Below are positions 1,422 through 12,861 of a DNA stretch of 64,000 nt, in pieces; within the stretch, counting starts at the first letter, position 1; each line of letters starts with the position of its first letter. The notes beneath the pieces were generated by a model. That model worked only from the letters and a program-made list of their open reading frames with translations. It made no database searches and was not told the origin of the DNA. Made by a program: the position numbers and the translations under genes. This stretch comes from a phage: the NCBI GenBank assembly GCA_014686905.1, contig GCA_014686905.1_4093.1, one strand, 5' to 3'.

Positions 1422-1472
1422 TCAAAACATCGTTAGCGGTCGATTTAGGCCGCTTGTATTGGGGATTATACC

Positions 1473-1643
1473 ATGAACGTTAATCAAGTACTGAATGAGA
1501 TCGAAAGCATCATTAAACCAATGAAACGCATTGATGCTATGTTAACACCGGAAGAATGCCGCCTTTATGAGCGTTACAGTGTGGAACAAGCCCAGGAAAT
1601 GGCCCGTATCCGTCCGGTTGCCAGTACTGATAAGGCGGCGTAA
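1473..1643 (+). CDS. hypothetical small protein (56 aa)
   Basis: ORF below track cut-off; stop overlaps next start. Confidence 0.35.
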   Translation: MNVNQVLNEIESIIKPMKRIDAMLTPEECRLYERYSVEQAQEMARIRPVASTDKAA

Positions 1644-1644
1644 T

Positions 1645-1854
1645 ATGCTTACTGTACAGGATAAGATCGACATCTTAAAGGTTAATATGTATGTGATTGA
1701 TGCCGTACCTGGTAAAGTATTTGCATACGATGATTCTAATCGCAGTCCGTTTTATTGCAGTCATGTAGTTGGATACGTGCCGTTGGCGTATGTTATAGAA
1801 AGAGTGGTTGATGCAGCATACAAACATTTTTTAGAAAATAATACTTGCAATTAG
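1645..1854 (+). CDS. hypothetical protein (69 aa)
   Basis: internal ATG of track ORF 1567..1854, directly after stop of 1473..1643. Confidence 0.45.
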   Translation: MLTVQDKIDILKVNMYVIDAVPGKVFAYDDSNRSPFYCSHVVGYVPLAYVIERVVDAAYKHFLENNTCN

Positions 1855-1903
1855 TTTTCAGTACTGTATAATGATTTACATCGAGAGCGGGAATAGTTCC
1901 CGC
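1841..1903 (+). promoter_or_regulatory. sigma70-like early promoter plus 5' leader stem-loop
   Basis: TTGCAA 1845-1850, 16-bp spacer, TG-n-TATAAT 1867-1872; hairpin GCGGGAA/TTCCCGC 1887-1903. Confidence 0.6.
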
Positions 1904-1924
1904 CTCACTTTTAAGGAATATGAA

Positions 1925-2071
1925 ATGAAAGCATCAAAAAAGAGTAATACTAAGAAAGCATGTTCACCTTTCGCTGGGGTATTCCCTTTACGTTTCGTTG
2001 ATGAAGTGGTTTCCTACCCGCCTGGCCTTACTCCTGAGATGGTAGAAAGTTTGCGTAAATCTAAAAAATAG
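1925..2071 (+). CDS. hypothetical small protein (48 aa)
   Basis: RBS AAGGAA 1913-1918, ATG 1925. Confidence 0.5.
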   Translation: MKASKKSNTKKACSPFAGVFPLRFVDEVVSYPPGLTPEMVESLRKSKK

Positions 2072-2134
2072 TACTTGCAATTAGTTTTTAAACGCGTATA
2101 ATGTTTTACATGAAGGGGAGAAATGATTCTCCCC
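2066..2134 (+). promoter_or_regulatory. sigma70-like early promoter plus 5' leader stem-loop
   Basis: TTGCAA 2075-2080, TATAAT 2097-2102; hairpin GGGGAGAA/TTCTCCCC 2115-2134. Confidence 0.6.
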
Positions 2135-2152
2135 AATAACAGGAGAAACAAA

Positions 2153-2305
2153 ATGAAACAATATAATGCTCGGTTTGATGTTACTATCGGTAACGGCAAA
2201 GGTCAATTCTCTTTCAGTACTCGCAAAAGTTATACAGAAAACTTCCTGCGTAATTGTGCACTGACCGCCGCTCAAATTAAACATTATTTTCAGGCTAAAA
2301 AATGA
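2153..2305 (+). CDS. hypothetical small protein (50 aa)
   Basis: RBS AGGAGA, ATG 2153 (internal Met of track ORF 2123..2305). Confidence 0.5.
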   Translation: MKQYNARFDVTIGNGKGQFSFSTRKSYTENFLRNCALTAAQIKHYFQAKK

Positions 2306-2391
2306 AATCATTTGCTTACTATAGTTCTGCGGTGATCGGTGCATTGATCGCGGCGTTGTTAGTAACCTATCTATTCTTTATGGTGATTTAA
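2302..2391 (+). CDS. putative hydrophobic micro-protein (29 aa)
   Basis: ATGA overlap with upstream stop; MKSFAYYSSAVIGALIAALLVTYLFFMVI looks like one TM helix. Confidence 0.3.
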   Translation: MKSFAYYSSAVIGALIAALLVTYLFFMVI

Positions 2392-2535
2392 ATGAATCCA
2401 ACAGGCTTAAATTATAAAAGTTGTTCGGCGTTTACGAAAGCAAATAAAGCGAATGCACGTAAAGCGAAAGTACAGGAGTACATCAAGCAAGGCATGACGC
2501 GAAAGGCGGCGATTCTAAAAGCTAAAAATAAATGA
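2392..2535 (+). CDS. putative basic micro-protein (47 aa)
   Basis: ATG immediately after previous stop; Lys/Ala-rich. Confidence 0.3.
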   Translation: MNPTGLNYKSCSAFTKANKANARKAKVQEYIKQGMTRKAAILKAKNK

Positions 2536-2640
2536 AAAAAGTGGTTGACTCCGGTCAGCCATTTTGCTATTATATATTCATTGAGAGATAGCTCACTAGC
2601 CCACAGGGTGCATAAGTGTATCTATTATATAAGTATTGAG
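2536..2640 (+). repeat. REP-A intergenic element copy 1 (terminator-like hairpin plus conserved box)
   Basis: hairpin TGGTTGAC-TCCG-GTCAGCCA then T-run; conserved GCCCACAGGGTGCATAAGTGTATCTATT. Confidence 0.6.
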
Positions 2641-2654
2641 TACTGAAAACTATT

Positions 2655-2725
2655 TTTAAAAAGTACTTGCAAACTATCTCAATAAGCGTATAATGTTTTA
2701 CATCGAAAGGGGAAACGGTTTCCCC
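2655..2725 (+). promoter_or_regulatory. sigma70-like early promoter plus 5' leader stem-loop
   Basis: TTGCAA 2667-2672, TATAAT 2689-2694; hairpin GGGGAAAC/GTTTCCCC 2709-2725. Confidence 0.6.
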
Positions 2726-2745
2726 TGGTAATAAGGAAACAAATC

Positions 2746-3087
2746 ATGACTATCTCAATTGCTCAATCTAACTTTGAAAATGAAATCATCGCCCAGGCAC
2801 TGCGTTTAAATGATGGTCGGGCCGAAATTAATTACGGTTTCAATTCAGGCGGTTGCGAAAACTATCAGTACTTTGTAACGGCTGATGGCGGTGTCCTGGG
2901 TATCAATACAGTTATTGTAAACATCCAAAAAATTAATTTCAATGATCCAGACGATAGCCAGTTTTACATCACTGGCGTAGACGTGAACTATGAGGATGAC
3001 TCACTAACTGATGATCACACTGGCGAGCGGTTAGAAAGTGCATACGGTGAAGATGATTATCAGTCCGGTCCAGAAGATTTCGAATAA
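2746..3087 (+). CDS. hypothetical acidic protein (113 aa)
   Basis: RBS AAGGAAAC, ATG 2746. Confidence 0.65.
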   Translation: MTISIAQSNFENEIIAQALRLNDGRAEINYGFNSGGCENYQYFVTADGGVLGINTVIVNIQKINFNDPDDSQFYITGVDVNYEDDSLTDDHTGERLESAYGEDDYQSGPEDFE

Positions 3088-3090
3088 TAT

Positions 3091-3160
3091 AAAAAATAGT
3101 TTGACAATAGATTATAGTACTGTATAATAGTTTACATCAAGGGGAGAAAAACTTCTCCCC
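3091..3160 (+). promoter_or_regulatory. sigma70-like early promoter plus 5' leader stem-loop
   Basis: TTGACA 3101-3106, TG-n-TATAAT 3123-3128; hairpin GGGGAGAA/TTCTCCCC 3141-3160. Confidence 0.65.
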
Positions 3161-3182
3161 ACTAACAGAGAGAGAAAACAAA

Positions 3183-3395
3183 ATGGCTAATATCCGGTCG
3201 AAATTAAAAAATGCAAAACAAGTTTTATTTTCAGATCATGAATACTTTAATAAAGATATTACAGGAGTTACAAGTATCAAGGAAGTAAAAGAAAAAACCG
3301 GCGTTTTGTGTGATGTGCGATTAGTTGGAACATTTGGGAATAACGTGCTATATCGCTGCGGTGATTACAATTTTACACTGACTATCATTAACTAA
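3183..3395 (+). CDS. hypothetical protein (70 aa)
   Basis: RBS AGAGAGAGAAAA, ATG 3183. Confidence 0.6.
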   Translation: MANIRSKLKNAKQVLFSDHEYFNKDITGVTSIKEVKEKTGVLCDVRLVGTFGNNVLYRCGDYNFTLTIIN

Positions 3396-3399
3396 AAAT

Positions 3400-3443
3400 A
3401 TTATCACAGTACTATTGACATAGTTTGATAGTACTGACATAAT
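3400..3443 (+). promoter_or_regulatory. sigma70-like promoter
   Basis: TTGACA 3415-3420, 17-bp spacer, CATAAT 3438-3443; near-duplicate of promoter at 665-706. Confidence 0.55.
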
Positions 3444-3478
3444 AACTTTTATCAACTACACTACTAAGGAATTAAAAA

Positions 3479-3658
3479 ATGGCTATCATCGCAAAAACTG
3501 AAATCGTTGGTCTGGATTCTATCATCATGACGTTTGAAGATCAAAAAGGTATGTATGTAGTTTCCTATGGTGATTATGTTCGGGAGTATGAAACGGTAGA
3601 CGAAGCCTTTGAAAGTTATATTCGCCAGGTGAATAAAGCATACGATGACTACCGCTAA
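3479..3658 (+). CDS. hypothetical small protein (59 aa)
   Basis: RBS AAGGAA, ATG 3479; below track cut-off. Confidence 0.5.
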   Translation: MAIIAKTEIVGLDSIIMTFEDQKGMYVVSYGDYVREYETVDEAFESYIRQVNKAYDDYR

Positions 3659-3669
3659 AATATATTACC

Positions 3670-3713
3670 AGTACTATTAAATCTATTGACAACGTTTGAT
3701 AGTACTGTATAAT
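3670..3713 (+). promoter_or_regulatory. sigma70-like promoter
   Basis: TTGACA 3686-3691, TG-n-TATAAT 3708-3713. Confidence 0.55.
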
Positions 3714-3757
3714 AAGTTTTATAAACAGTAGTTAACTTAACCTAAGAGAGAAACAAA

Positions 3758-3901
3758 ATGATCGCACTGGATTCATTCATCGACGCAGTACTGGCAAAAA
3801 CTGGCGAGGATCTGACCGCAGAACAATACGCGATGATCGAGCAATGTCAGCAAAACGGTAAATCGGTGAAAGATACTGTTAAGATTATCCGCAAGATGTA
3901 A
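3758..3901 (+). CDS. hypothetical small protein (47 aa)
   Basis: RBS AGAGAGAAA, ATG 3758; followed by hairpin. Confidence 0.45.
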   Translation: MIALDSFIDAVLAKTGEDLTAEQYAMIEQCQQNGKSVKDTVKIIRKM

Positions 3902-3907
3902 TATTAT

Positions 3908-3935
3908 AGCCCACTGGTTAACGCTGGTGGGCTTT
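3908..3935 (+). terminator. putative intrinsic terminator
   Basis: hairpin AGCCCAC...GTGGGCT then TTTAAT; weak U-tract. Confidence 0.4.
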
Positions 3936-4006
3936 AATCATTTACCCTATACAATGCCAGTACTAAACCGTTTATCTCATTAGAATGCGTTACAGGACGT
4001 TTAACA

Positions 4007-4204
4007 ATGATTAGCATGAAATCAGTACAAAAACAAATAGAAACATTATCAAAAATTAAACGTAAACAATACTCCTTAGAATATACAATCAATGGTAACT
4101 ATCATCTAATGAAAGAAAATAATTTTATAGTCATTGATGAATCATTGCAAATCATTAGTATAGTACTGAAAGCATTAATCAATGACAGAAAAAAATTAAA
4201 ATAA
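4007..4204 (+). CDS. hypothetical Lys-rich protein (65 aa)
   Basis: track ORF; weak RBS. Confidence 0.4.
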   Translation: MISMKSVQKQIETLSKIKRKQYSLEYTINGNYHLMKENNFIVIDESLQIISIVLKALINDRKKLK

Positions 4205-4294
4205 TTGTTGACATACAATGCCAGTACTGGCATAATACTTACATCAAGACGAGAACGTCACCAACCCATAGGGTGCACAAATGTAACTATATAA

Positions 4295-4370
4295 TATCGA
4301 TCAATAAATGATCAAAAAAGTACTGGATCAATTTAGCATAAGGCGTATAATTCTGATCAATTCTTGATCA
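4295..4370 (+). promoter_or_regulatory. cluster of five GATC sites (TGATCAA-type repeats) in a long non-coding leader
   Basis: GATC at 4299, 4310, 4326, 4355, 4366 inside the ~330-bp non-coding stretch 4205-4532. Confidence 0.35.
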
Positions 4371-4532
4371 AAGGCAATAAACGTAGTTGAAATTATATAG
4401 AAAGTACAAAGGCGTTACCATTCGTGGTAATGCTGGGGAATATGTAGTATCATACGGTTTGAATAAAATCAGTACTAGTAGTATAATCGTAGCATTGCAG
4501 TACTATAGTATTTTTATAATGAGGTTAAAATA

Positions 4533-4790
4533 ATGGCTGTAGGATTTGCGAAGGACGGGGCCGAACAAGACGAGATTAACGCAGTGATTCAGGCCGCCGT
4601 AAACCACGCTAGAAAGCAAATTAACGCACAAATAGAATCACTGGTACATTGCCTCGACTGCGGCGATATAATCCCTGAGAAACGACGCCAGGCCGTTAAG
4701 GGATGTAAGTACTGCATAACTTGCCAGGAGGATCATGATAGTACTTTTAAACGTCCCCCGCGTAATTGTTGGCATAGATCTATGAGATAA
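4533..4790 (+). CDS. TraR/DksA-family C4 zinc-finger protein
   Basis: CLDC-x17-CITC (CxxC-x17-CxxC) spacing typical of TraR/DksA; RBS GAGG. Confidence 0.6.
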   Translation: MAVGFAKDGAEQDEINAVIQAAVNHARKQINAQIESLVHCLDCGDIIPEKRRQAVKGCKYCITCQEDHDSTFKRPPRNCWHRSMR

Positions 4791-4825
4791 AAAGTATTGA
4801 CAGTACTGAAAGATAGTGTATAATA
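4791..4825 (+). promoter_or_regulatory. sigma70-like promoter
   Basis: TTGACA 4798-4803, 16-bp spacer, TG-n-TATAAT 4820-4825. Confidence 0.6.
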
Positions 4826-4853
4826 TTTTATATCTTAACTGAGGATTGAAATC

Positions 4854-5210
4854 ATGGGAATACAACATATCACGCGTACTACTGACAATGGCGAGATCAC
4901 TGGCTATCAAGTACAGGGCAAAGTAGCACAATTGCAGTACTGGTTTGTTAAACGTGGAATCATTGCACCGGATCTTGATTATGACCGTGTAGCGTTTATT
5001 GATTCTCTTTATGTTGATCCTGATAGTCGGGGCAATGGTGAAGGTAACGAATTAATGAATGCCTTTATTGATGCCGCCGATGATTCAGATTGTATCATTT
5101 TAGAATGCGATACAGGAGAAGATAACGCCTTCAATCTTAAAGAATGGTACGAAGGTTTCGGATTCGAGGTACTGATCGATAGTGAATATCCTATCATGAT
5201 TTTATCATAG
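4854..5210 (+). CDS. putative GNAT-like acetyltransferase (118 aa)
   Basis: RGNGEGNELMNAFIDAA resembles GNAT motif A; RBS GAGGA. Confidence 0.45.
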   Translation: MGIQHITRTTDNGEITGYQVQGKVAQLQYWFVKRGIIAPDLDYDRVAFIDSLYVDPDSRGNGEGNELMNAFIDAADDSDCIILECDTGEDNAFNLKEWYEGFGFEVLIDSEYPIMILS

Positions 5211-5216
5211 TACTTG

Positions 5217-5280
5217 CATTTAGTTTTCAGTACTGTTATAGTACTTACATCAAGGGGAAACATCTTCCCCTACTAAGAGG
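5217..5280 (+). promoter_or_regulatory. early promoter plus 5' leader stem-loop
   Basis: TTGCAT 5224-5229, weak -10 TTATAG; hairpin AGGGGAA/TTCCCCT 5262-5280. Confidence 0.5.
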
Positions 5281-5288
5281 AAATAAAA

Positions 5289-5477
5289 ATGGAAAACTTA
5301 TCAAGTATTTTAGTACAAGATGATTTCGGTAATCCTGGAAGTGCTATCATTGTTCGGGGTAATAAAGCAACGTTTGTTATTGCTGGTGGACCTGTACAGC
5401 GTAGCATTAAAAATAATGCTGTTACCATTAATAATGTACGCTATCGCTTAGATAAAGAATTGATTCATAAACTTTAA
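5289..5477 (+). CDS. hypothetical protein (62 aa)
   Basis: RBS AAGAGGAAA, ATG 5289. Confidence 0.6.
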   Translation: MENLSSILVQDDFGNPGSAIIVRGNKATFVIAGGPVQRSIKNNAVTINNVRYRLDKELIHKL

Positions 5478-5544
5478 AAAGTATTTGACAATAGATTATA
5501 GTACTGTATAATAAGTTACATGAAGGGGTGAAATGATTCTCCCC
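5476..5544 (+). promoter_or_regulatory. sigma70-like early promoter plus 5' leader stem-loop
   Basis: TTGACA 5485-5490, TG-n-TATAAT 5507-5512; hairpin 5525-5544. Confidence 0.6.
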
Positions 5545-5561
5545 ACTAAGAGGAAAGAAAA

Positions 5562-5774
5562 ATGCAAGGTCAACTAATCGTTCGTAAATGGTCTGATACT
5601 AACGAAAAACCGTGGGATGTACAATACATCGGACCGGATGGGGTATCACGTTATCAGCCTGGCGTAACGCATAGTACTGAGCAATTCGCAAACGCTCACC
5701 GCGAACGCCTGTTAGAATCCATGAAACAGGGATTCTGTGAAAAATTCATTCAAGATCATTGGCTGAAAGATTAA
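5562..5774 (+). CDS. hypothetical protein (70 aa)
   Basis: RBS AAGAGGAAAG, ATG 5562. Confidence 0.6.
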   Translation: MQGQLIVRKWSDTNEKPWDVQYIGPDGVSRYQPGVTHSTEQFANAHRERLLESMKQGFCEKFIQDHWLKD

Positions 5775-5791
5775 TATAAGGAGTACAGCTT

Positions 5792-5884
5792 ATGCAAATG
5801 AATCCGATGATTATTGTTTTAGCTGTACTTATGATCATTCATGCAATAGTAGAAGTATTAACGCAATCAGGAGTAATAAAATGA
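5792..5884 (+). CDS. putative hydrophobic micro-protein (30 aa)
   Basis: RBS AAGGAG, ATG 5792; MQMNPMIIVLAVLMIIHAIVEVL looks like one TM helix. Confidence 0.3.
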   Translation: MQMNPMIIVLAVLMIIHAIVEVLTQSGVIK

Positions 5885-6054
5885 TTCAAGTAGAATTATC
5901 AGTACTGAAAGATCTGTTTTATCGGTTAGGTACTACTGGCGAGTATCCTAAAAGTGATACCGCAAAACTTTTTGTATCACTCGACTTATGGCAACGCGAA
6001 CAATTAGTAATGTCCTGGCGTAAAGGTAAAGCAGATAGCGAGGTGAAAGCATGA
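5881..6054 (+). CDS. hypothetical small protein (57 aa)
   Basis: ATGA overlap with previous stop; RBS AGGAG. Confidence 0.4.
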   Translation: MIQVELSVLKDLFYRLGTTGEYPKSDTAKLFVSLDLWQREQLVMSWRKGKADSEVKA

Positions 6055-6200
6055 AAGAATTCTTATTCGAAGTAGTGTTTCAAGGTGTCGGTAGTAACCA
6101 ACTGATTCGCTCAAGTGGTTACAATGTTAACCAGGCATGGAATAACATTAAACAAATGTACCCGAACGCTATCACCTATCGCAACCCGAAACAAGTTTAA
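6051..6200 (+). CDS. hypothetical small protein (49 aa)
   Basis: ATGA overlap; RBS GAGG. Confidence 0.4.
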   Translation: MKEFLFEVVFQGVGSNQLIRSSGYNVNQAWNNIKQMYPNAITYRNPKQV

Positions 6201-6210
6201 AAATAATTGA

Positions 6211-6300
6211 AAAAGGGATTGACTCCGGTCAGTCCCTTTGCTATTATATACGCATAGAAACAAATCAGCCCACAGGGTGCATAAATGTATCTATTGTTTG
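6211..6300 (+). repeat. REP-A intergenic element copy 2
   Basis: hairpin GGGATTGAC-TCCG-GTCAGTCCC 6215-6236 flanked by A-run and T-run; conserved GCCCACAGGGTGCATAAATGTATCTATT. Confidence 0.6.
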
Positions 6301-6330
6301 CTGGTGGCTAGTACTGAAAACTATTTTTAA

Positions 6331-6366
6331 AAAAGTACTTGCATTGTACTTAGAATCAAGTATAAT
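6331..6366 (+). promoter_or_regulatory. sigma70-like promoter upstream of ORF-free structured leader
   Basis: TTGCAT 6339-6344, 16-bp spacer, TATAAT 6361-6366; downstream hairpin ACGGGG...CCCCGT 6380-6405. Confidence 0.5.
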
Positions 6367-6447
6367 GTTTTACATCAGGACGGGGAACGAAACAAGTAAC
6401 CCCGTTAAGTAGTCCAGGAGTAAGACATAAGAAAACCTCCCCTGATA

Positions 6448-6482
6448 AAATAGTTTGACAATAGAAAGTAAACGAGTATAAT
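6448..6482 (+). promoter_or_regulatory. sigma70-like promoter
   Basis: TTGACA 6455-6460, TATAAT 6477-6482. Confidence 0.55.
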
Positions 6483-6515
6483 ACTTACATCAACCACTGA
6501 TAAGGAAACATTAAA

Positions 6516-6791
6516 ATGCGGATTCTACTGACAGCTAACGAAATCGAACAAGTACTGACTACTAACCTGGAAGACTGGAAACGTGAAGCAGATATCCAGG
6601 CGGTTCAACGGCTTAACGATGAGTTAACGCCGGATGACTTAAGCAAGATTGTAGATCCTCAATTCTACGAAGATATCCACGACACCGCGTTAAGCGTCGA
6701 GGATGTACTAGATAAGCACTACATTGATATTGATTTGCAGGTTTACGGTCGTAAAAACTTTATCACTATTCACGACATTTACAATAATTAA
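6516..6791 (+). CDS. hypothetical acidic protein (91 aa)
   Basis: RBS AAGGAAAC, ATG 6516. Confidence 0.65.
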   Translation: MRILLTANEIEQVLTTNLEDWKREADIQAVQRLNDELTPDDLSKIVDPQFYEDIHDTALSVEDVLDKHYIDIDLQVYGRKNFITIHDIYNN

Positions 6792-6855
6792 GTATTGACA
6801 AAGTATCTTAGTACTGTATAATAGTTTACATCGAGAGGGGGAATGGTTCCCCTCC
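6789..6855 (+). promoter_or_regulatory. sigma70-like early promoter plus 5' leader stem-loop
   Basis: TTGACA 6795-6800, TG-n-TATAAT 6817-6822; hairpin GAGGGGGAA/TTCCCCTC 6835-6855. Confidence 0.65.
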
Positions 6856-6877
6856 TAACAAAGAGAGAGAAATAAAA

Positions 6878-7060
6878 ATGGCTAAATGCACTATCTGTAA
6901 GAAAGAAATCGTATTAGTTCCAAGTGCCCGTGAACGTGCCGCTCGGTTCGGTGGCAAACCGTCAGACTATACAAAAATGTTTACTGTCCATGCAGCTTGC
7001 CAGGTAGCAAAACGTTCACAAGAAAGCGTAGAATTAATGCGTAAACTTTCCAAAAAATAA
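6878..7060 (+). CDS. hypothetical protein with CxxC pair (60 aa)
   Basis: RBS AGAGAGAGAAA, ATG 6878; CTICKK...HAAC. Confidence 0.55.
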   Translation: MAKCTICKKEIVLVPSARERAARFGGKPSDYTKMFTVHAACQVAKRSQESVELMRKLSKK

Positions 7061-7126
7061 GTATTGACAAAGTATCTTAGTACTGTATAATAGTTTACAT
7101 CAAGTGAGGGGAAACGGTTCCCCTCC
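7060..7126 (+). promoter_or_regulatory. sigma70-like early promoter plus 5' leader stem-loop
   Basis: TTGACA 7064-7069, TG-n-TATAAT 7086-7091; hairpin GAGGGGAAAC/GTTCCCCTC 7106-7126. Confidence 0.65.
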
Positions 7127-7148
7127 TAACAAAGAGAGAGAAATAAAA

Positions 7149-7472
7149 ATGGCTATGATCCTTGCCCAGAAAGTAGAACTGAAAATTGTAACCTCCTTTG
7201 ACATTAAAGTTAATCGGTGGACTGATTCACACGGCAATACTTACCACTCTTGCTACGTGTCTGCGTTAATTGGTGATCGTTGGGAAGACCTGGGACATGA
7301 AACCTTTACATACGGTTACGGCACACAAGGCGAATACACGGGCTTGGAGATCATTAAAGAAACCGTTATAGGTTTCAACCCGAAAGAAAAAGTTATTCAC
7401 CGCATCGAAAAAGAGATTAACAAAGAAATAACAGTTCGATACAACGATGTAAAACGTAAGAAAGACATGTAA
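7149..7472 (+). CDS. hypothetical protein; paralog of 748..1071
   Basis: ATG 7149 after RBS; shares RWTDSHGNTYHSC...FTYGYG block. Confidence 0.65.
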   Translation: MAMILAQKVELKIVTSFDIKVNRWTDSHGNTYHSCYVSALIGDRWEDLGHETFTYGYGTQGEYTGLEIIKETVIGFNPKEKVIHRIEKEINKEITVRYNDVKRKKDM

Positions 7473-7495
7473 TAGAATCCATTTAAAGTACTATT

Positions 7496-7534
7496 TGACA
7501 TTGCCCAGATAGTACTTTATAATAGACTCTAACT
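7496..7534 (+). promoter_or_regulatory. sigma70-like promoter
   Basis: TTGACA 7506-7511, 17-bp spacer, TATAAT 7529-7534. Confidence 0.55.
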
Positions 7535-7567
7535 TGTAGTACTAACTCAACTAATAGGATGTATACC

Positions 7568-7963
7568 ATGATTACTAAATTCTACGCTACCCGTGAAGCT
7601 GCCCGTATTGTTGCACGCGAGGAAGGAGCAGCATTTAAAGACATGGGCAAAGATGCACCGAAAGGTCAACGCTGGGCCGTACAGTTCAAAGAAATCTCTG
7701 ATATCGTGAATTCACCGGAGCCAGTACTAACAGCAGCAGAACTAAAACGAGCGGATTTACTGGCGGCAGTACTTAACGCACAAGATGAATTTATCGCTGA
7801 TTCTGATATCAAAGTACAGACAAACCATACCGCTTGGACTCACGCGGATCACCTGGCAAACCTTAAGCGTCCAAGTGAACTGGTACGCAACCAGAAAGAG
7901 ATCCGACACGACCGTAAGGGTAATCGTGTAACAGTATACAGTAAACGCCGCCAGGTTATCTAA
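7568..7963 (+). CDS. hypothetical protein (131 aa)
   Basis: RBS AGGA then ATG 7568 (alternative start 7559). Confidence 0.6.
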   Translation: MITKFYATREAARIVAREEGAAFKDMGKDAPKGQRWAVQFKEISDIVNSPEPVLTAAELKRADLLAAVLNAQDEFIADSDIKVQTNHTAWTHADHLANLKRPSELVRNQKEIRHDRKGNRVTVYSKRRQVI

Positions 7964-7985
7964 TAACTTGCAGTACTAACAACAC

Positions 7986-8010
7986 GGCGGGATCAGTTCC
8001 CGCCTTTTTT
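7986..8010 (+). terminator. rho-independent terminator
   Basis: hairpin GGCGGGA-TCAG-TTCCCGCC followed by TTTTTT. Confidence 0.75.
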
Positions 8011-8025
8011 ATAGGATAAACTAAA

Positions 8026-8280
8026 ATGATTAAGGTACAACTATCTAAAGATAATATCTTGCGGGTACACTATAAAGCACCACAGAGAATCATCACAAAG
8101 GCCGTACAGCTTGCTAATGAGTTTATTAATGGTAACCTATTACCAAGGAAGTTAAGCAACGGAAAACTGCGTGTAATCGATGTAGACACTAACAACAGAA
8201 TAGTAATAGAGAACACAGGAAAGATAAACCTTTATGAACATCAACAATATAATAAGAAAATAAAACTAATATCACGTTGA
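8026..8280 (+). CDS. hypothetical basic protein (84 aa)
   Basis: RBS AGGA, ATG 8026. Confidence 0.55.
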   Translation: MIKVQLSKDNILRVHYKAPQRIITKAVQLANEFINGNLLPRKLSNGKLRVIDVDTNNRIVIENTGKINLYEHQQYNKKIKLISR

Positions 8281-8333
8281 CAGTACTCAATTGTTTTAGT
8301 ATTATGTACACATACCAACACGGGAGAAACAAA

Positions 8334-8552
8334 ATGAAATTATCTAAAATCGAAAAGAAAACTATTGATGAAGCAGTTAAGCACGGTTATACCTTTCGTA
8401 ATGATTCACATTTTACCAATTTTCAACAAGGCCAAAGGACTATTAAAAAACTAATTGACAAAGGTTTATTAGTTAAAGTAGATAACGGTAACGGCATTGA
8501 GTATCAGCCAACCCAAGACGCATTATCTTTAAAGAAATATGCAATTATCTAA
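8334..8552 (+). CDS. hypothetical protein (72 aa)
   Basis: ATG 8334 after duplicated promoter/RBS block 8277-8333. Confidence 0.5.
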   Translation: MKLSKIEKKTIDEAVKHGYTFRNDSHFTNFQQGQRTIKKLIDKGLLVKVDNGNGIEYQPTQDALSLKKYAII

Positions 8553-8609
8553 TTGACAGTACTCAAATGTTTTAGTACTATATGTACATACCAACACGGG
8601 GGAAACAAA

Positions 8610-8852
8610 ATGATTACTTTAGAAAAACGTATCAAAGAAACTACATCGCTGGTGGAACTGTTAACAGTACTGAAATGTAAAACAACACCATTCAGCACGC
8701 CGGACTTTATTAATATGGTTGATGTTAATGGTCGCTATCGTATCACGGTCGAACAAGGAGCGGCGAAAGTATTCAGTACTAAAAACACTAAGGAAGTGAT
8801 CCACGCCGTTAATGTTAAAAAAGTAGTTGCAATTGATAGTAAAGTACTGTAA
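8610..8852 (+). CDS. hypothetical protein (80 aa)
   Basis: ATG 8610 after duplicated promoter/RBS block 8553-8609. Confidence 0.5.
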   Translation: MITLEKRIKETTSLVELLTVLKCKTTPFSTPDFINMVDVNGRYRITVEQGAAKVFSTKNTKEVIHAVNVKKVVAIDSKVL

Positions 8853-8883
8853 TATAGTTTCATTAACTCAAGGAGAACATGCA

Positions 8884-9468
8884 ATGCGTAATTATACTAA
8901 ATTCATCCGTACCCTGTCAGAAATGGAAACTAACAAAGAGATCCTTTCAGCTTGTCGGTTAGCTGGACTGGAGATCATCGGGGCGGGATCTTCCCGTATA
9001 GTTTTCGCTTTAAATGATCGGTTAGTGATTAAGGTCGCCAATTGTGATGCGGGTGTAGAACAAAATGAAACTGAATGTAAGGTATGGAATTTTTTAGACT
9101 ATGACCGCCCTCAATTGAAACAGTACTTTGCTAAAGTGCATATGCATTTAAGCGATCCTGATAATATGTTTATCGTTATGGATCGGTTGAGTACTGCAAG
9201 CAAAGGCAGTGTAAAGCACGTTAACGCGTGCAACGAATTAAAGTACAATATTAAACGTAATGCAATTGAACGCCAGCACCGCTTTGCTGATGCACTACAA
9301 CACGTTGATGATACACTGTCAACACTAACGATAAGAGATATCAGAAAACAGAATATCGGCCAGGATCGCAACGGCCTTATTAAAGTACTTGATTACGGTT
9401 TAACCCGCAATATCTGGAATCAGTACTATAAAAAGCGGGATGTAAAAGCCGTAACTATAACACGATAA
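8884..9468 (+). CDS. minimal protein-kinase-like protein (194 aa)
   Basis: Gly-rich loop GAGSSRIVF, VIKVA lysine, catalytic-loop-like RDIRKQN, DFG-like LDYG with kinase-like spacing; RBS AGGAGA. Confidence 0.55.
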   Translation: MRNYTKFIRTLSEMETNKEILSACRLAGLEIIGAGSSRIVFALNDRLVIKVANCDAGVEQNETECKVWNFLDYDRPQLKQYFAKVHMHLSDPDNMFIVMDRLSTASKGSVKHVNACNELKYNIKRNAIERQHRFADALQHVDDTLSTLTIRDIRKQNIGQDRNGLIKVLDYGLTRNIWNQYYKKRDVKAVTITR

Positions 9469-9477
9469 AAAAGATTA

Positions 9478-9575
9478 AAAAAGGGATTGACTTCGGTCAG
9501 TCCCTTTGCTATTATATATTCATTGAGAGATAGCTCACTGACCCACAGGGTGCATAAATGTATCTATTATATAAG
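9478..9575 (+). repeat. REP-A intergenic element copy 3
   Basis: hairpin GGGATTGAC-TTCG-GTCAGTCCC 9483-9504 then T-run; conserved box CCCACAGGGTGCATAAATGTATCTATT. Confidence 0.6.
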
Positions 9576-9600
9576 TATTCAGTACTGAAAACTATTTTTA

Positions 9601-9671
9601 AAAAAGTACTTGCATTGTACTTAGAATCAAGTATAATGTTTTATATCGAGAGGGGGAAATGGTTCTCCCTC
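9601..9671 (+). promoter_or_regulatory. sigma70-like early promoter plus 5' leader stem-loop
   Basis: TTGCAT 9610-9615, TATAAT 9632-9637; hairpin 9648-9671. Confidence 0.6.
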
Positions 9672-9691
9672 AAAGAATAAGGAATAAAATC

Positions 9692-9913
9692 ATGACTACA
9701 ATGACTTGCATTTACGCTTCCAATCTTCTGAATGATGCGGCCTTTAATGTTGATTCAGAATATCAATGTTATCGGGATGAAAATAAAAAAGTTTTTGTAG
9801 TTGATAATAATGGTTTCCATATTGAATTACAATCCGGTTTCACTGGTGTTGATGGTAAATCAGTATGGGGCGTACAGGATGATAACGGTACATATCATTT
9901 TAAACGTAATTAA
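9692..9913 (+). CDS. hypothetical protein (73 aa)
   Basis: RBS AAGGAATAAA, ATG 9692 (internal Met of track ORF 9659..9913). Confidence 0.55.
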   Translation: MTTMTCIYASNLLNDAAFNVDSEYQCYRDENKKVFVVDNNGFHIELQSGFTGVDGKSVWGVQDDNGTYHFKRN

Positions 9914-9975
9914 GTATTGACAAAGTATCTTAGTACTGTATAATAGTTTACATCAAGGGGAGAATAGTTCTCCCC
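9911..9975 (+). promoter_or_regulatory. sigma70-like early promoter plus 5' leader stem-loop
   Basis: TTGACA 9917-9922, TG-n-TATAAT 9939-9944; hairpin GGGGAGAA/TTCTCCCC 9957-9975. Confidence 0.65.
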
Positions 9976-9997
9976 GATACTAAAAGGAAACAAAATT

Positions 9998-10270
9998 ATG
10001 TCCAGCTACTCCGCTACTATGATCATTAAAGATATGAACGGTAATCCTACTTCTGCTGGTGGATCATTTGGAAACATTAATTTAGATGGTCGGTTATCCA
10101 TGCAATCAGCCATCGATGCAGCGAAAGAAGTTTTTAAGAATGAATGTACTGTTAGTAAGCTGGATTATATGGGATTCGCTATCGAGAAAACTAATCGTTT
10201 TGTGAACTACAAAAATCCACTGATGATTGATACTAACCTGAAAGCTAACGAAGTGGGGTACTTATTATGA
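9998..10270 (+). CDS. hypothetical protein (90 aa)
   Basis: RBS AAAGGAAAC, ATG 9998. Confidence 0.6.
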   Translation: MSSYSATMIIKDMNGNPTSAGGSFGNINLDGRLSMQSAIDAAKEVFKNECTVSKLDYMGFAIEKTNRFVNYKNPLMIDTNLKANEVGYLL

Positions 10271-10458
10271 CAGTAGAAGAAGTTAAAAAAGTACTGGCAG
10301 TACTACGCTATCATAATCATTGCAAGGTGAAGAATGATCCTGATTATGTTGATTCATCCCTGGAGGAAGACACATTAAACGCAATAAGCCATATGCAAAC
10401 ATTAGCAAAGCGTATGACCGAAAAGAATAGACCGGACTATATCGGAAATAAAATTTAA
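10267..10458 (+). CDS. hypothetical protein (63 aa)
   Basis: ATGA overlap with upstream stop. Confidence 0.5.
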   Translation: MTVEEVKKVLAVLRYHNHCKVKNDPDYVDSSLEEDTLNAISHMQTLAKRMTEKNRPDYIGNKI

Positions 10459-10526
10459 AAAGTACTTGCATTGTAGTTAGATTAACGTATAATGTTTTAC
10501 ATAGAGCGGGGGAATAGTTCTCCCGC
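10456..10526 (+). promoter_or_regulatory. sigma70-like early promoter plus 5' leader stem-loop
   Basis: TTGCAT 10466-10471, TATAAT 10488-10493; hairpin GCGGGGGAA/TTCTCCCGC 10506-10526. Confidence 0.6.
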
Positions 10527-10544
10527 CAGTCCAGGAGATACACC

Positions 10545-10808
10545 ATGAACACTATCGAAATCACTATCAATGCACACGTATACGACAACGTAGTACTGCA
10601 AACTACTATGACCGCTAATGATACCAGTACTTTGCGGAATACTGTTATTAGTGCCGTATGTGCCGCTATCGGTGATGTCGCCCTGGAAAATGCAGAACAC
10701 ATCAACGACGGTTTCACTATGTGCAAACGTGATAACGCAAAACATATCATCGTAGAAGGTTACGGCGGTGTAGAATATAATCTTTATATGAAAAAAGTAC
10801 TTGCATAA
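10545..10808 (+). CDS. hypothetical protein (87 aa)
   Basis: RBS AGGAGA, ATG 10545. Confidence 0.55.
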   Translation: MNTIEITINAHVYDNVVLQTTMTANDTSTLRNTVISAVCAAIGDVALENAEHINDGFTMCKRDNAKHIIVEGYGGVEYNLYMKKVLA

Positions 10809-10857
10809 TAACTAAAACAAAGTATAATGTTTTGCATAGGGGGAGATATCCTCCCCC
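10791..10857 (+). promoter_or_regulatory. sigma70-like early promoter plus 5' leader stem-loop
   Basis: TTGCAT 10801-10806, TATAAT 10823-10828; hairpin GGGGGAG/CTCCCCC 10838-10857. Confidence 0.6.
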
Positions 10858-10875
10858 ACTAAAAGGAGTAATAAA

Positions 10876-11100
10876 ATGGCTAACTTTGATGAACTGATGC
10901 GGGAAGTAGCTAACCTGGCAGAAGAGAAAAAATCATTCGATTCTATCTATAACACCGCTCACCGTGATTCAGTACTGGCATGTACTCAGGATCAAAAAGA
11001 TGAACTAATCGCCACATATCATGAAGCATGGAAGTACTACCGCCAATGGGAGAAAGAAGAAAGCGAGTCTACCATCAACGGCATCAATAATCTAATCTAA
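10876..11100 (+). CDS. hypothetical protein (74 aa)
   Basis: RBS AAAGGAG, ATG 10876. Confidence 0.6.
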   Translation: MANFDELMREVANLAEEKKSFDSIYNTAHRDSVLACTQDQKDELIATYHEAWKYYRQWEKEESESTINGINNLI

Positions 11101-11176
11101 AAGTTTTATTTCAGTACTATTGACATAGCTTGATAGTACTGATGTAATAACTTTACTAACTACAAGGGGAAACATA

Positions 11177-11434
11177 ATGGAACAGTTCACACAATATCGG
11201 GTAAATCCTCAAGCTATGGCCTACGTAGAAGACCATAAAACGTTACCAGTACTAACACCAATTAAAGGCCATATCTATCGTGCAATGTCATGGAATACGG
11301 CCCAGGATGGATATACTACCGCTGGCGTGGGTATGTATTGCGGGAATGGTGAATGGTTTGATCCAAATAATCCGGTAGCCATTGACAGTACTGAAAAAAT
11401 GAAATGGGCCGACTACATCGAAGATATTTCATAA
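11177..11434 (+). CDS. hypothetical protein (85 aa)
   Basis: promoter TTGACA...TGTAAT upstream; RBS AGGGGAAA. Confidence 0.6.
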   Translation: MEQFTQYRVNPQAMAYVEDHKTLPVLTPIKGHIYRAMSWNTAQDGYTTAGVGMYCGNGEWFDPNNPVAIDSTEKMKWADYIEDIS

Positions 11435-11501
11435 AACTATTTGACAGTACTAACCAGTAATGTATAATGTTTTACATAGAGCGGGGGAATAGTTCTCCCG
11501 C
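11435..11501 (+). promoter_or_regulatory. sigma70-like early promoter plus 5' leader stem-loop
   Basis: TTGACA 11441-11446, TG-n-TATAAT 11463-11468; hairpin 11480-11501. Confidence 0.6.
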
Positions 11502-11523
11502 CAATAGTTTGGAGTAAAACATT

Positions 11524-11724
11524 ATGTCTATCGCTATCGCCCTGGTTGAAGTACTGAAAGAAGCTAAAGCCAACCTTATCGATGTACAGATTAAGGAATT
11601 GCAAAATGGTTTAATCGGCTGTACTTGTACCGCTGGTGGAGCGGCAGACTATCGGGAATTCGAATCACTTGAATCGATGGTCCGTTATCTTACCATGATC
11701 GTAGAAGATTGGAGAATCATCTAA
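11524..11724 (+). CDS. hypothetical protein (66 aa)
   Basis: RBS GGAG, ATG 11524. Confidence 0.55.
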   Translation: MSIAIALVEVLKEAKANLIDVQIKELQNGLIGCTCTAGGAADYREFESLESMVRYLTMIVEDWRII

Positions 11725-11737
11725 CAAAAAAGAATAA

Positions 11738-11830
11738 AAAAAGGGATTGACTCCGGTCAGTCCCTTTGCTATTATATACGCATAGACAAAAACTAGCCCA
11801 CTGGGTGCAGGAGTGTATCTAAAATATATA
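11738..11830 (+). repeat. REP-A intergenic element copy 4
   Basis: hairpin GGGATTGAC-TCCG-GTCAGTCCC 11743-11764 then T-run; diverged box GCCCACTGGGTGCAGGAGTGTATCTA. Confidence 0.55.
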
Positions 11831-11969
11831 GTTAATAACGGTGAGTAACTATCTGCTGGTGGGGTGAAAACTATTAATAAAAAAGTATTGACAAAGTATA
11901 TCAGTACTGCAATAATGTATCTCGTAGGGCGGCAATGGTGCGACGGCCCACAAAGTTAGGAGATTCAAA

Positions 11970-12302
11970 ATGAGTACTTCAATCGCTATCGTTAAAGCTT
12001 TCATCCGTACCAATGTTTCATCTGTATTCATCGACGGTCTGGATCGGGAAGTAGAATACTCAATCATTATCGCACAGACTGCAAACGGTGCTCGGTATAT
12101 CCTTAATGATAGTGAAGCAAATCACTACTACTTCACTAAAGCCACTGGCTTTAAACGCATCGATGCTGATGTAGTATACGCTAAGATGAATAAGCTGGTA
12201 GACAAGATTAACGCGAAAGGTACTATCGATTTACAGTACTGGAACGAAACCTATCCAGAATATGGATCTCACCGTTACCTGAATCCAGGTATTAAAATGT
12301 AA
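11970..12302 (+). CDS. hypothetical protein (110 aa)
   Basis: promoter TTGACA...GCAATAAT upstream; RBS AGGAGA. Confidence 0.6.
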   Translation: MSTSIAIVKAFIRTNVSSVFIDGLDREVEYSIIIAQTANGARYILNDSEANHYYFTKATGFKRIDADVVYAKMNKLVDKINAKGTIDLQYWNETYPEYGSHRYLNPGIKM

Positions 12303-12370
12303 AAAGTACTTGCATAGTACTTAGAATCAAGTATAATGTTTTACATAGAGAGGGGGAAATGGTTCTCCCT
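12301..12370 (+). promoter_or_regulatory. sigma70-like early promoter plus 5' leader stem-loop
   Basis: TTGCAT 12309-12314, TATAAT 12331-12336; hairpin 12347-12370. Confidence 0.6.
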
Positions 12371-12391
12371 CCTAAATTAAGGAGTTTTATC

Positions 12392-12793
12392 ATGACCTTC
12401 TCAATCAATTCCTTCGCTGACGTTTTAGTACTGGCTCGGACTTTTGGTAAAGATGCACTGGAGTACGCTGTAAGTAATGGTACTATCCAACCGGAACAGT
12501 GCCGCATCATTGGAAACTGCAAACGTTGGGCGGTATCCAATACTATTGCACTGGAAAACTTCCACGATGGCAACAATGAATATTCTGTTGATGTAGTATT
12601 CGAAGCCGTTGATCTCGGCGGTATCTATAATACTAACCTGAATGATGTGCGTATCGTTCGCACGGGGTTCGGTGCTTATGATGTATCTATCCGTGAAGCT
12701 ATGGACACCGGATACATTAGCAAGGACTTACTTGCTCACATCATGCAGCTGTGTACGGAACGTAACGAAGCACGCACTATCTTAGGACTGTAA
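12392..12793 (+). CDS. hypothetical protein (133 aa)
   Basis: RBS AAGGAG, ATG 12392 (internal Met of track ORF 12359..12793). Confidence 0.6.
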   Translation: MTFSINSFADVLVLARTFGKDALEYAVSNGTIQPEQCRIIGNCKRWAVSNTIALENFHDGNNEYSVDVVFEAVDLGGIYNTNLNDVRIVRTGFGAYDVSIREAMDTGYISKDLLAHIMQLCTERNEARTILGL

Positions 12794-12817
12794 GCGTTAC
12801 ACATCACCAAACATCAT

Positions 12818-12840
12818 AGGCCGCCTTGTAGCGGCCTTAA
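12818..12840 (+). terminator. putative intrinsic terminator
   Basis: hairpin AGGCCGC-CTTGTA-GCGGCCT; weak T-tract. Confidence 0.4.
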
Positions 12841-12861
12841 CTATATCAGGAGTACATACAC

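Follow-up and report, generated by a model that had tools for sequence, protein, structure and literature searches.

The PeSL elements of the T4-type phages RB49 and phi1 combine strong sigma70 promoters with stem-loop terminators, and in one subclass the stem-loop overlaps the -35 box (Arbiol et al. 2010, PMC2839356). A comparable intergenic element is found in a stretch of 64,000 nucleotides (nt) of phage DNA (GenBank assembly GCA_014686905.1, contig GCA_014686905.1_4093.1; referred to as the window), in which four copies of a terminator hairpin with an embedded promoter are followed by a conserved box, and a fifth copy of the box lies behind an ordinary promoter. Like the PeSL elements, the hairpin copies contain a sigma70-like early promoter with an AT-rich upstream tract and a stem-loop terminator, which can overlap the -35 element; they are located between small orphan genes in a plastic region, occur in many repeated copies and coincide with the breakpoints of indels and replacements between close relatives. 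The hairpin and promoter part is a fresh instance of this PeSL-like kind, which has already been annotated piecemeal in related phages as either a terminator or a promoter. PeSL elements, however, lead directly to the Shine-Dalgarno site of the gene that follows and lack a conserved transcribed RNA module, whereas here a structured RNA of about 50 nt, a spacer and a second, ordinary early promoter precede the gene; the ordinary early promoters of the window do match the PeSL end. The phage lineage is also a different one, as the element described here belongs to Rak2-like jumbo phages.

The element is probably a dual-coded terminator-promoter cassette, which launches a conserved structured RNA, and this RNA module is itself the likely product. 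Termination, re-initiation at the overlapping promoter and a conserved 5' fold are well supported by sequence comparison. An earlier, sequence-only reading of the window had offered a bidirectional terminator, a promoter, a small RNA or a protein-binding site as alternatives; the terminator, promoter and RNA readings hold simultaneously and not as alternatives. The non-coding RNAs ncRNA001 and ncRNA002 of phage PA5oct provide a parallel to the RNA part. They have lengths of 236 and 451 nt, map to the long terminal repeat and, with some variation between time points, make up about 1-5% of the phage reads each (Lood et al. 2020, PMC7318152). PA5oct is a related jumbo phage, which uses the host RNA polymerase, and its highly transcribed terminal-repeat RNAs are an analogy to the module rather than homologs of it; homology was rejected, since the best match with the model of the box reached 6.5 bits.

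Predicted terminator and promoter in the same hairpin DNA

All features that had been described for the four hairpin-plus-box copies are present in the sequence. The hairpin GGGATTGAC-TCCG-GTCAGTCCC is found at 6215 and 11743 and, as a variant with a TTCG loop, at 9483 (three matches to the pattern including the variant, none expected in shuffled sequences), and the covarying arms TGGTTGAC/GTCAGCCA of copy 1 are located at 2541. The hairpins start 3 to 16 nt past the stop codons of co-directional open reading frames (ORFs; Table 1). Folding of the + strand yields -16.9 to -19.5 kcal/mol for the window copies (z -5.3 to -6.2), and none of 200 shuffled sequences was as stable. Homologous hairpins of phage G17, including the one at the site of copy 2, were annotated by the G17 authors as ARNold terminators. 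Based on the position after the stop codons, the fold energy and the G17 annotation, the hairpin is predicted to terminate the transcription of the upstream genes. The T-run after the hairpin had been noticed before; it is present, but short and interrupted (TTTGCTATTAT). In the RNA, three to four U residues are followed by an interruption (UUUGCUAUUAU or UUUUGCUAUUAU); relatives have up to six U, and a consensus scan accepted all four copies. The proposal that the terminator is bidirectional is not supported, as a conserved T.G wobble turns into a C.A mismatch on the other strand, where folding yields only -6.4 to -13.2 kcal/mol. The conserved G.U pair thus makes the hairpin specific for the + strand, and no gene on the - strand seems to require a terminator at the copies.

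The same DNA carries a near-consensus sigma70 promoter. All four hairpin copies of the window contain TTGACT and TATTAT with a spacing of 17 base pairs (bp; 10 of 12 consensus matches), as the sequence-only reading had seen, TGC is present ahead of the -10 element, and a run of five to seven A residues is located upstream, which can serve both as the A-tract of the terminator and as an UP-like element. TTGACT is formed by the 5' arm and the loop of the hairpin, and the 3' arm and the U-tract constitute the 17-bp spacer, which is followed by TGn-TATTAT. The assignment as a promoter is supported by comparison: 70 of the 73 distinct copies collected from relatives (see below) have a sigma70 promoter, the -10 element of which nearly always ends 0-3 nt from position 1 of the model, and among the 73 copies TTGAC is present in 65, the 17-bp spacer in 54 and TGn in 52. 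In the Yersinia phage fHe-Yen9-03, the same site is annotated as -35/-10 signals. An A residue seven nt past the -10 element is invariant in the seed alignment A2, which fits a fixed, predicted transcription start.

How both functions may be accommodated in the same bases can be seen from 21 distinct hairpin promoters of the same geometry, which originate from several genera. The four outer positions of their stems covary and are paired without exception (for instance GC13/AT4/CG4 and GC15/TA5/AT1). In the inner part, the 5' arm is fixed as TTGAC, and changes are confined to the 3' arm, where all of them remain compatible with pairing or wobble. At the level of the aligned sequences, a frozen inner 5' arm combined with covarying outer pairs is the signature of two overlaid constraints, one from the RNA hairpin and one from the -35 element. 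The element resembles the ARNold-type intrinsic terminators of G17 in its GC-containing hairpin with an A-tract before and a U-rich tract after it, positioned right past a stop codon; in contrast to them, its U-tract has to serve as promoter spacer and extended -10 element as well and is interrupted for this reason, its 5' arm is constrained to TTGAC, and its hairpin is asymmetric between the strands. Such dual coding, with a hairpin arm as -35 element and the U-tract as spacer and extended -10 element, is a compact design that could be of interest in synthetic biology.

A conserved candidate RNA module behind the promoter

Copies of the box were collected from the phages 121Q, G17, RaK2, K64-1, GAP32 and CBB, the Serratia phage BF, the Yersinia phage fHe-Yen9-03 and several metagenomic jumbo-phage contigs. 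Pattern searches retrieved 51 and a covariance model 73 distinct copies; loose patterns of 14-15 nt gave mostly chance matches in IMG/VR, which were filtered out. The seed of the model consisted of 15 sequences of uniform geometry; a MAFFT alignment of all 47 had misaligned the first helix, P1. In the window, the conserved box CCCACAGGGTGCATAAATGTATCTA matches at 2600, 4265, 6269 and 9542 with up to three mismatches (four matches, none expected) and at 11797 with four mismatches (repeat family D19). The covariance model, which was built from the copies of relatives, was run with filters off on both strands of the 64 kb and identified exactly five modules, all of them on the + strand (E 6e-23 to 3e-8; Table 1), and the next best match had an E-value of 0.75. 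The box at about 4266 had been regarded as partial; it is there, but its RNA module is complete and only the terminator hairpin is missing, because it is placed behind an ordinary TTGACA-17-CATAAT promoter.

The box is conserved in related phages, with 73 distinct copies across several genera. It is not tied to the hairpin, as ordinary promoters precede it at 4265 and in many relatives: the hairpin covers the -35 element in only 46 of the 73 distinct copies, and the remainder have ordinary promoters like the one in window 4208-4293. Since 70 of the 73 copies lie behind a promoter and only 46 have a hairpin, the conserved unit consists of the promoter and the first ~50 transcribed nt. The comparison indicates that the box is the 5' part of the transcript which starts at the embedded promoter. 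The idea that the element is a small RNA thus stands insofar as the box begins the RNA of the promoter; a discrete transcript of ~60 nt, however, is not predicted for the window copies, because no terminator lies between their module and the early promoter that follows.

The first ~50 nt can be folded into three helices. P1 is a hairpin that starts 2 nt from the predicted 5' end, usually with 4-5 bp and a purine-rich loop of 6-7 nt (AGAUAG, GCGAAA, AGAACAA). Its stems differ between the copies and yet they pair (UGAG/CUCA, UCCA/UGGA, UGGC/GCCG, AGACA/UGUCU, AGCA/UGCU, ACCAC/GUGGU, GACG/CGUC). In the model-derived alignment of 71 distinct rows, double changes are found in all four P1 pairs (e.g., CG22/AU19/GC13, none unpaired); 93.7% of the P1 cells and 93.5% of the cells of the whole structure are paired, compared with 11-52% when the partners are slid, and the observed covariation score was reached by no shuffle. 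In the raw sequences, a hairpin of at least 4 bp is present at the position of P1 in 63% of the copies and in 19% of the shuffles, with a maximum of 32% over 200 shuffle sets. P1 is followed by a short linker, usually CUAR, and by P2 (RCCC-N3-4-GGGU), which is paired in every copy. P2 is closed by an A-U pair in 36 rows and by a G-U pair in 32 others, and two sequences carry the compensatory change CCU...AGG. P3 consists of GC-N4-6-GU, followed by the tail AUCUAU, and the substitutions in both are almost all wobble-neutral (U-A to U-G, G-U to G-C). The loops of both helices are hypervariable, with 12 variants in P2 and at least 36 in P3. As an alternative to P2, GGGU could pair with the tail to form a 7-bp helix with three G.U pairs (GGGUGCA/UGUAUCU), which is pairable in ~90% of the family; in the thermodynamic ensemble, the mean pair probability is 0.58 for P2 and 0.21 for the alternative helix. 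According to these alignments, P1 is backed by covariation, P2 by pairing in every copy together with two compensatory changes, and P3 weakly.

Due to the G.U pairs, the fold is specific for the + strand, that is, for the transcribed sense. This bears on the possibility that a phage or host protein binds the double-stranded DNA of the box, just past the promoter, which would then be either an operator or roadblock acting on elongation from the embedded promoter or a replication or packaging site. The strong conservation of GGGTGC...GTATCTAT, the fixed position relative to the promoter, the flanking AGTACT palindromes, which are likely protein sites, and the convergent box pairs that form long inverted repeats in some relatives would all be compatible with a DNA site. 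However, the tolerated changes (R ahead of CCC, A to G, U to C) preserve G-U or A-U pairing for the + strand alone, the CCU...AGG double changes keep complementarity and not base identity, the neighbouring P1 covaries as RNA, and the variable loop lengths (3-4 and 4-6 nt) would shift the spacing of half-sites. A purely DNA-level binding site, which had been among the earlier proposals, is disfavoured by the strand-specific, wobble-compatible substitutions and the P1 covariation, and we consider it quite improbable.

No known RNA family was found at the module. A search of window 1-14000 against Rfam 15 with E-values up to 5 gave only two chance matches, which are located elsewhere, and the best Rfam 15 match of the stand-alone RNA of K64-1 reached 19.5 bits, compared with a cut-off of 75, and fell on the terminator part. 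In 5,426 complete E. coli genomes, BLAST with the RNA region as query returned no match (E up to 1); neither a host homolog nor a long complementary target was seen. Possible homologs in other bacteria were rejected as chance matches: a pattern scan of 185,579 species gave single matches in unrelated phyla, only one of which reached E = 0.006 with the model. In the literature searched, no paper describing the box RNA was found; for this region, the CBB paper records RpoD-like promoters along with UP elements and no RNA element. As far as these searches go, the module appears to be an undescribed structured RNA family, which is restricted to Rak2-like jumbo phages, and it provides a concrete RNA candidate that is absent from Rfam and has a 5' hairpin backed by covariation.

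Several other features of the box were considered, and most of them were rejected. A small ORF with an ATG or GTG start (ATG-TAT-CTA...) was dismissed because its reading frame is not conserved: its length varies from 1 to 40 codons among the copies, the copy at 4265 has ATG-TAA, and relatives have CTG in place of the start codon or lack it. A pseudoknot formed by AGAUA of the P1 loop with UAUCU of the tail was dismissed as well, since the tail is constant and the P1 loops change (GCGAAA, AGAACAA and others) without compensation. A -10-like pause element is not supported either, as CATAAA is not conserved and reads CAGGAG in copy 4. An outer helix may form between the linker (ACUAA/ACUGA) and U(U/C)AGUAC downstream; it shows one suggestive covariation (A:U vs G:C) and is absent in many copies.

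Arrangements of the module and its possible role

Three arrangements of the module are found among the relatives. In arrangement A, an ordinary promoter is followed by the module, ~10 nt, AGUACUG, another ~10 nt and a strong intrinsic terminator, which is predicted to yield a stand-alone RNA of ~100 nt. Examples are K64-1 (two copies), RaK2, CBB, BF and several metagenomic contigs. The two RNAs of K64-1 are predicted at ~229240-229345 and ~236620-236745 of its record (minus strand). The stand-alone copies of K64-1 and RaK2 have their strong terminator ~25 nt past the module and are oriented opposite to the flanking genes; those of K64-1 share a bidirectional terminator with the upstream gene and, on their other side, adjoin back to back the early promoter that serves the downstream gene. 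Arrangement B is that of the hairpin copies of the window: behind the terminator hairpin and its embedded promoter come the module, an AT-rich spacer of 30-65 nt, the next early promoter and the gene, and no terminator is present between copies 1-4 and the next early promoter. The position of the box ahead of the next early promoter, which had been recognized before, is found at each of copies 1-4; the layout behind copy 1 (Table 1) recurs after copies 2-4, with the next promoters near 6339, 9610 and 11888. In arrangement C, which is found in 121Q, K64-1 and metagenomic contigs, two convergent modules form long inverted repeats. Such pairs are located at 826-961 of record L007 (121Q), 1223-1360 of L040, 279-418 and 3282-3403 of L050 and 1270-1400 of L029 (K64-1); their predicted read-through RNAs fold with about -30 to -62 kcal/mol, and there is no such pair in the window.

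As the three arrangements are alike only in that a strong promoter puts out the module, the module is favoured as a product in its own right. Each downstream gene of the window has its own early promoter, so that the embedded promoter is not needed for its expression, which argues against a leader dedicated to a particular gene. The genomes contain 7-10 or more copies of the module, and P2, P3 and the tail are kept in genera which share little other nucleotide similarity, namely Asteriusvirus, Alcyoneusvirus, Eneladusvirus and the GAP32 and CBB phages.

The proposed mechanism would start with termination: judging from sequence and comparison, the A-tract, the hairpin and the U-rich tail would stop the transcription of the upstream early-gene block. 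The same bases would then act as a strong promoter for the host sigma70 RNA polymerase, which would restart at the A residue seven nt downstream. The first ~50 nt of the new transcript would fold into P1 and the near-invariant P2-P3-AUCUAU, and GGGU may pair with the tail instead. In the window, the RNA would continue as a long leader into the next early gene, and relatives would also make the terminated small RNA of ~100 nt. Terminator-promoters of this kind would reset transcription every few kilobases, which gives a predicted punctuation map of the early region in the terminal repeat.

In its position, the module is reminiscent of HK022 put and lambda nut, where a small hairpin array is likewise located near the 5' end of an early phage transcript and upstream of terminators (put was compared by description). 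A cis-acting antitermination RNA of this type would be promoter-proximal and stay on its own polymerase, alone or with a phage factor, so that transcripts from the embedded promoter would read through the hairpin terminators at which ordinary transcripts stop. In every case, the module occupies about +3 to +50 of a transcript that starts at a strong promoter, terminators occur every 1.7-3.6 kb in the early region, the hairpins of the module are small and have conserved stems and variable loops, and P2 cannot coexist with the alternative, extended P3, so that a switch would be possible. The stand-alone copies (K64-1, RaK2, CBB, Serratia phage BF and others), however, meet a strong terminator within ~25 nt and oppose the flanking genes, so that read-through would give antisense RNA only. 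Furthermore, no boxA-like match with up to one mismatch is present in the five leader regions, and the P2 loop of 3-4 nt with its 12 variants does not resemble the GNRA-like pentaloop of boxB. In contrast to put and nut, many of the copies described here have their own strong terminator and face away from genes. Antitermination is thus considered an unlikely function of the module.

The near-invariant stems with free loops, the weak stability, the strong promoters in multiple copies and the probable location in the terminal repeat suggest an abundant RNA that is recognized by a protein, and it is from these properties that we infer the biochemical role of the module. As the product of the cassette, it would be an abundant immediate-early RNA, the conserved stems of which could be the recognition site of a conserved protein partner, and it could act as a decoy, a sponge or a ribonucleoprotein. 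More specifically, and only tentatively, it is proposed that the module represents an undescribed immediate-early, multi-copy RNA family, which is encoded in the terminal repeat and specific to Rak2-like phages, and that its G.U-rich stems capture a conserved enterobacterial or phage protein within the first minutes of infection. RNA polymerase, an RNA-decay or chaperone factor or a defence sensor could be the partner. It is also possible, with the same reservation, that the RNA for such a capture is delivered both as stand-alone small RNAs of ~100 nt and as leaders from the terminator-promoters. If a protein partner exists, the module would be a new example of an RNA-based tool for host takeover or anti-defence. 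Bacterial multi-copy small RNAs and protein sponges such as Qrr1-5 and CsrB/RsmY are likewise paralogous RNAs with a conserved core and a variable rest, which have their own strong promoters and in part Rho-independent terminators. In those RNAs, however, the conserved part is a single-stranded seed or GGA loops, whereas it lies in the stems here; GGA is found in about half of the P3 loops.

In E. coli, mRNAs such as ompA are known to be protected by a stem positioned within 2 nt of their 5' end. P1 may accordingly act as a 5' clamp of the RNA against decay, and it could be asked whether the whole module is a mere 5' stabilizer or processing signal of early mRNAs, which protects from RNase E or RppH or is cleaved, with no role in trans. 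P1 starts 2 nt past the predicted start, the ordinary early promoters of the window are all followed by a 5' GC stem-loop (repeat family D2), and the window copies continue into mRNAs. The near-invariant P2, P3 and tail, the terminated stand-alone copies that precede no gene and the copies lacking P1 would all be left unexplained, and an exclusively stabilizing role is therefore judged highly improbable.

In addition to launching the RNA, the repeated cassettes may have a secondary role, as they could provide homology for the shuffling of early-gene modules between related phages, similar to the T4-type PeSL. BLAST comparisons of window 1-14 kb with G17 and 121Q gave high-scoring segment pairs that end at 4205, 4807, 5228, 5475/5477, 6443/6497, 6884/7052, 9912/10010, 10504 and 11874/11941, and in the BLAST search with window 2400-12000 the best places end at 2523, 6199 and 11830, at hairpin-plus-box copies. 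The ends of the segment pairs nearly all coincide with a promoter or hairpin cassette, and several pairs of ends overlap, which is expected for recombination between repeats. In these sequence comparisons, the breakpoint pattern matches modular shuffling of the PeSL type. Cassettes that serve as a substrate for shuffling would explain the mosaic differences among otherwise near-identical phages. The box itself could be functionless, that is, the element would be a mere PeSL-like cassette, in which the box hitch-hikes by recent duplication or gene conversion and acts at most as homology for recombination. Copies 1 and 3 are indeed 85% identical over 161 nt including their flanks (repeat family D18), the homology breakpoints of relatives coincide with regulatory cassettes, and the PeSL cassettes of RB49 and phi1 behave in this way (PMC2839356). 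However, P2, P3 and the tail are nearly invariant across genera, while the flanks and the loops diverge (at least 36 variants of the P3 loop); the sequence of P1 changes and its pairing is kept; and the module is found behind unrelated promoter types and in both orientations. A box without function is thus improbable.

Several observations weigh against the module as a structured RNA product of a terminator-promoter. As the pair counts were taken from an alignment that had been fitted to the model, they are biased toward the structure. The RNA module alone is not unusually stable (z -0.4 and -1.1), the pairing probability of P3 is low (mean 0.23), and P2 and P3 are conserved mainly as sequence, so that the structure rests on few compensatory events. 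About one quarter of the copies have no convincing P1, including copies 2 and 4 of the window, which have an A-rich leader instead. The U-tract of the window terminators is short (UUUGCUAUUAU), and since the window copies lack a terminator, a discrete small RNA would require processing there. No protein partner or target of the module was identified. In the literature searched, no transcriptome of Asteriusvirus or another Rak2-like phage was found, and RNA starts, ends and abundance are predictions.

Genomic setting and neighbouring features

BLAST places the window with the Asteriusvirus-like (Rak2-like) jumbo coliphages: across its entire length, region 2400-12000 shares 96% identity with Turkey3 and CRJP21, which are jumbo coliphages of Asteriusvirus, and it has mosaic matches to ~100 related records. 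Rak2-like jumbo phages (121Q, PBECO4, RaK2, K64-1, GAP32, CBB and others) are under development for phage therapy, and no study of their early transcription was found in the literature searched. A query consisting of hairpin and box matches four places in records of ~348-356 kb and eight in records of ~366-384 kb, the length of which is sufficient for both copies of the terminal repeat; a single record of ~386 kb has four places. In phage vB_Ec-M-J, the direct terminal repeat spans 1-21525. Based on these comparisons, approximately the first 15 kb of the window, with every copy of the element, are probably located inside a direct terminal repeat.

The plausible genes between 1 and 13.5 kb of the window are all short and lie on the + strand, according to the ORF list. 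Most of them are preceded by an early-promoter cassette, which is present in at least 16 copies in window 100-12400 (repeat families D1, D2, D4-D6) and consists of an UP-like A-tract, AAAAAGTACTTGCA or TTGACA, 16-17 bp, TATAAT, GTTTTACATC, a GC stem-loop 5-8 nt past the predicted start and a ribosome-binding site. The product of ORF 4533-4790, downstream of the fifth box copy, is a C4 zinc-finger protein of the DksA/TraR type (Pfam PF01258, E 1.4e-10), and ORF 8827-9468, which ends at the terminator of copy 3, has a weak, sub-threshold Pfam match to protein kinases; no Pfam family was found for the remaining eight ORFs that flank the copies. A separate strong terminator at 7986-8004 (GGCGGGATCAGTTCCCGCC followed by TTTTTT) has neither an embedded promoter nor a box, and thus not every terminator of the region bears the RNA module.

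Table 1. Coordinates of the predicted features in the window and of LexA boxes in related phages
Feature	Position	Strand	Remarks
Copy 1, terminator hairpin AAAGTGGTTGAC-TCCG-GTCAGCCATTTT	2538-2565	+	3 nt past stop of ORF 2392-2535; -16.9 kcal/mol, z -5.3
Copy 1, embedded sigma70-type promoter	2545-2573	+	-35 TTGACT 2545-2550, 17-bp spacer ending TGC, -10 TATTAT 2568-2573; predicted start A2580
Copy 1, RNA module	2574-2628	+	P1 2582-2585/2592-2595, P2 2599-2602/2606-2609; 71 bits
Copy 1, RNA module, 3' part		+	P3 2610-2612/2617-2619 (or also 2609/2620), tail AUCUAU 2621-2626
Region after copy 1	2629-2745	+	AT-rich spacer, two AGTACT palindromes, promoter TTGCAA-16-TATAAT 2667-2694, 5' GC stem-loop, ribosome-binding site, ATG 2746
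Ordinary promoter TTGACA-17-TGG-CATAAT	4208-4236	+	no terminator hairpin; drives fifth box copy; predicted start A4243
Fifth copy, RNA module	4240-4293	+	P1 GACG/CGTC; box 4265-4289; 39 bits, E 6e-11; upstream of ORF 4533-4790
Copy 2, terminator hairpin	6212-6239	+	12 nt past stop of ORF 6051-6200; -19.5 kcal/mol, z -5.6
Copy 2, embedded promoter TTGACT-17-(TGC)TATTAT	6219-6247	+	predicted start A6254
Copy 2, RNA module	6248-6297	+	degenerate P1, A-rich leader AGAAACAAAU instead; box 6269-6293; 34 bits, E 5e-9
Copy 3, terminator hairpin, TTCG loop	9480-9507	+	12 nt past stop of ORF 8827-9468; -18.5 kcal/mol, z -6.2
Copy 3, embedded promoter	9487-9515	+	predicted start A9522
Copy 3, RNA module	9516-9570	+	P1 UGAG/CUCA; box 9542-9566; 69 bits
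Copy 4, terminator hairpin	11740-11767	+	16 nt past stop of ORF 11524-11724
Copy 4, embedded promoter	11747-11775	+	predicted start A11782
Copy 4, RNA module	11776-11825	+	short 3-bp P1 UAG/CUA; box 11797-11821, GGAG loop in P3; 32 bits, E 3e-8
Chi sites	47, 3923, 5382, 6300, 8648, 10055, 11632, 11855, 61030	+	
Chi site	52387	-	
LexA boxes in related phages	L019 1864-1900 (CBB), L072 3949 (BF), L028 6115 (fHe-Yen9-03), L025 9968, L050 6351-6371, L040 11304		

The palindrome AGTACT occurs 225 times in the whole window, compared with 17 expected occurrences (e.g., at 2639, 2662, 6310, 6334, 9581 and 9605), and CAGTACTG is found 49 times, compared with 0.7 expected. Typical locations of AGTACT are the -35 flank of the early promoters (AAAAAGTACTTGCA), the position just before the -10 element (TAGTACTGTATAAT) and ~10 nt past the box RNA, which suggests a candidate binding site of a regulator or a DNA-modification motif. 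In several genera, near-consensus LexA (SOS) boxes of the type TACTG-N10-CAGTA or CTGT-N8-ACAG are located directly past the box RNA and are composed of two AGTACTG motifs, which are 10 nt apart. They were rejected as a part of the element, since they follow the RNA in some genera only and none is present in the window or in K64-1.

Dispersed and tandem repeats at 14000-19600 and 30368-32424 of the window (families D3, D7, D9, D11 and D13) seem to be located in coding regions. They include a ~55-nt unit with nine copies at a spacing of ~215-270 nt and a unit of 142-218 nt with five copies at a spacing of ~450 nt, and probably correspond to small paralogous genes arranged in arrays. The Chi sequence 5'-GCTGGTGG-3' is found nine times on the + strand and once on the - strand of the window, and eight of the nine + strand sites are located in the first 12 kb; ~0.2 would be expected. 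A co-oriented enrichment of Chi is also observed in the early or terminal-repeat regions of G17, 121Q, K64-1 (8:1), RaK2, GAP32, CBB and fHe-Yen9-03 (6:0), and may be a way of taming RecBCD at the ends of linear genomes.

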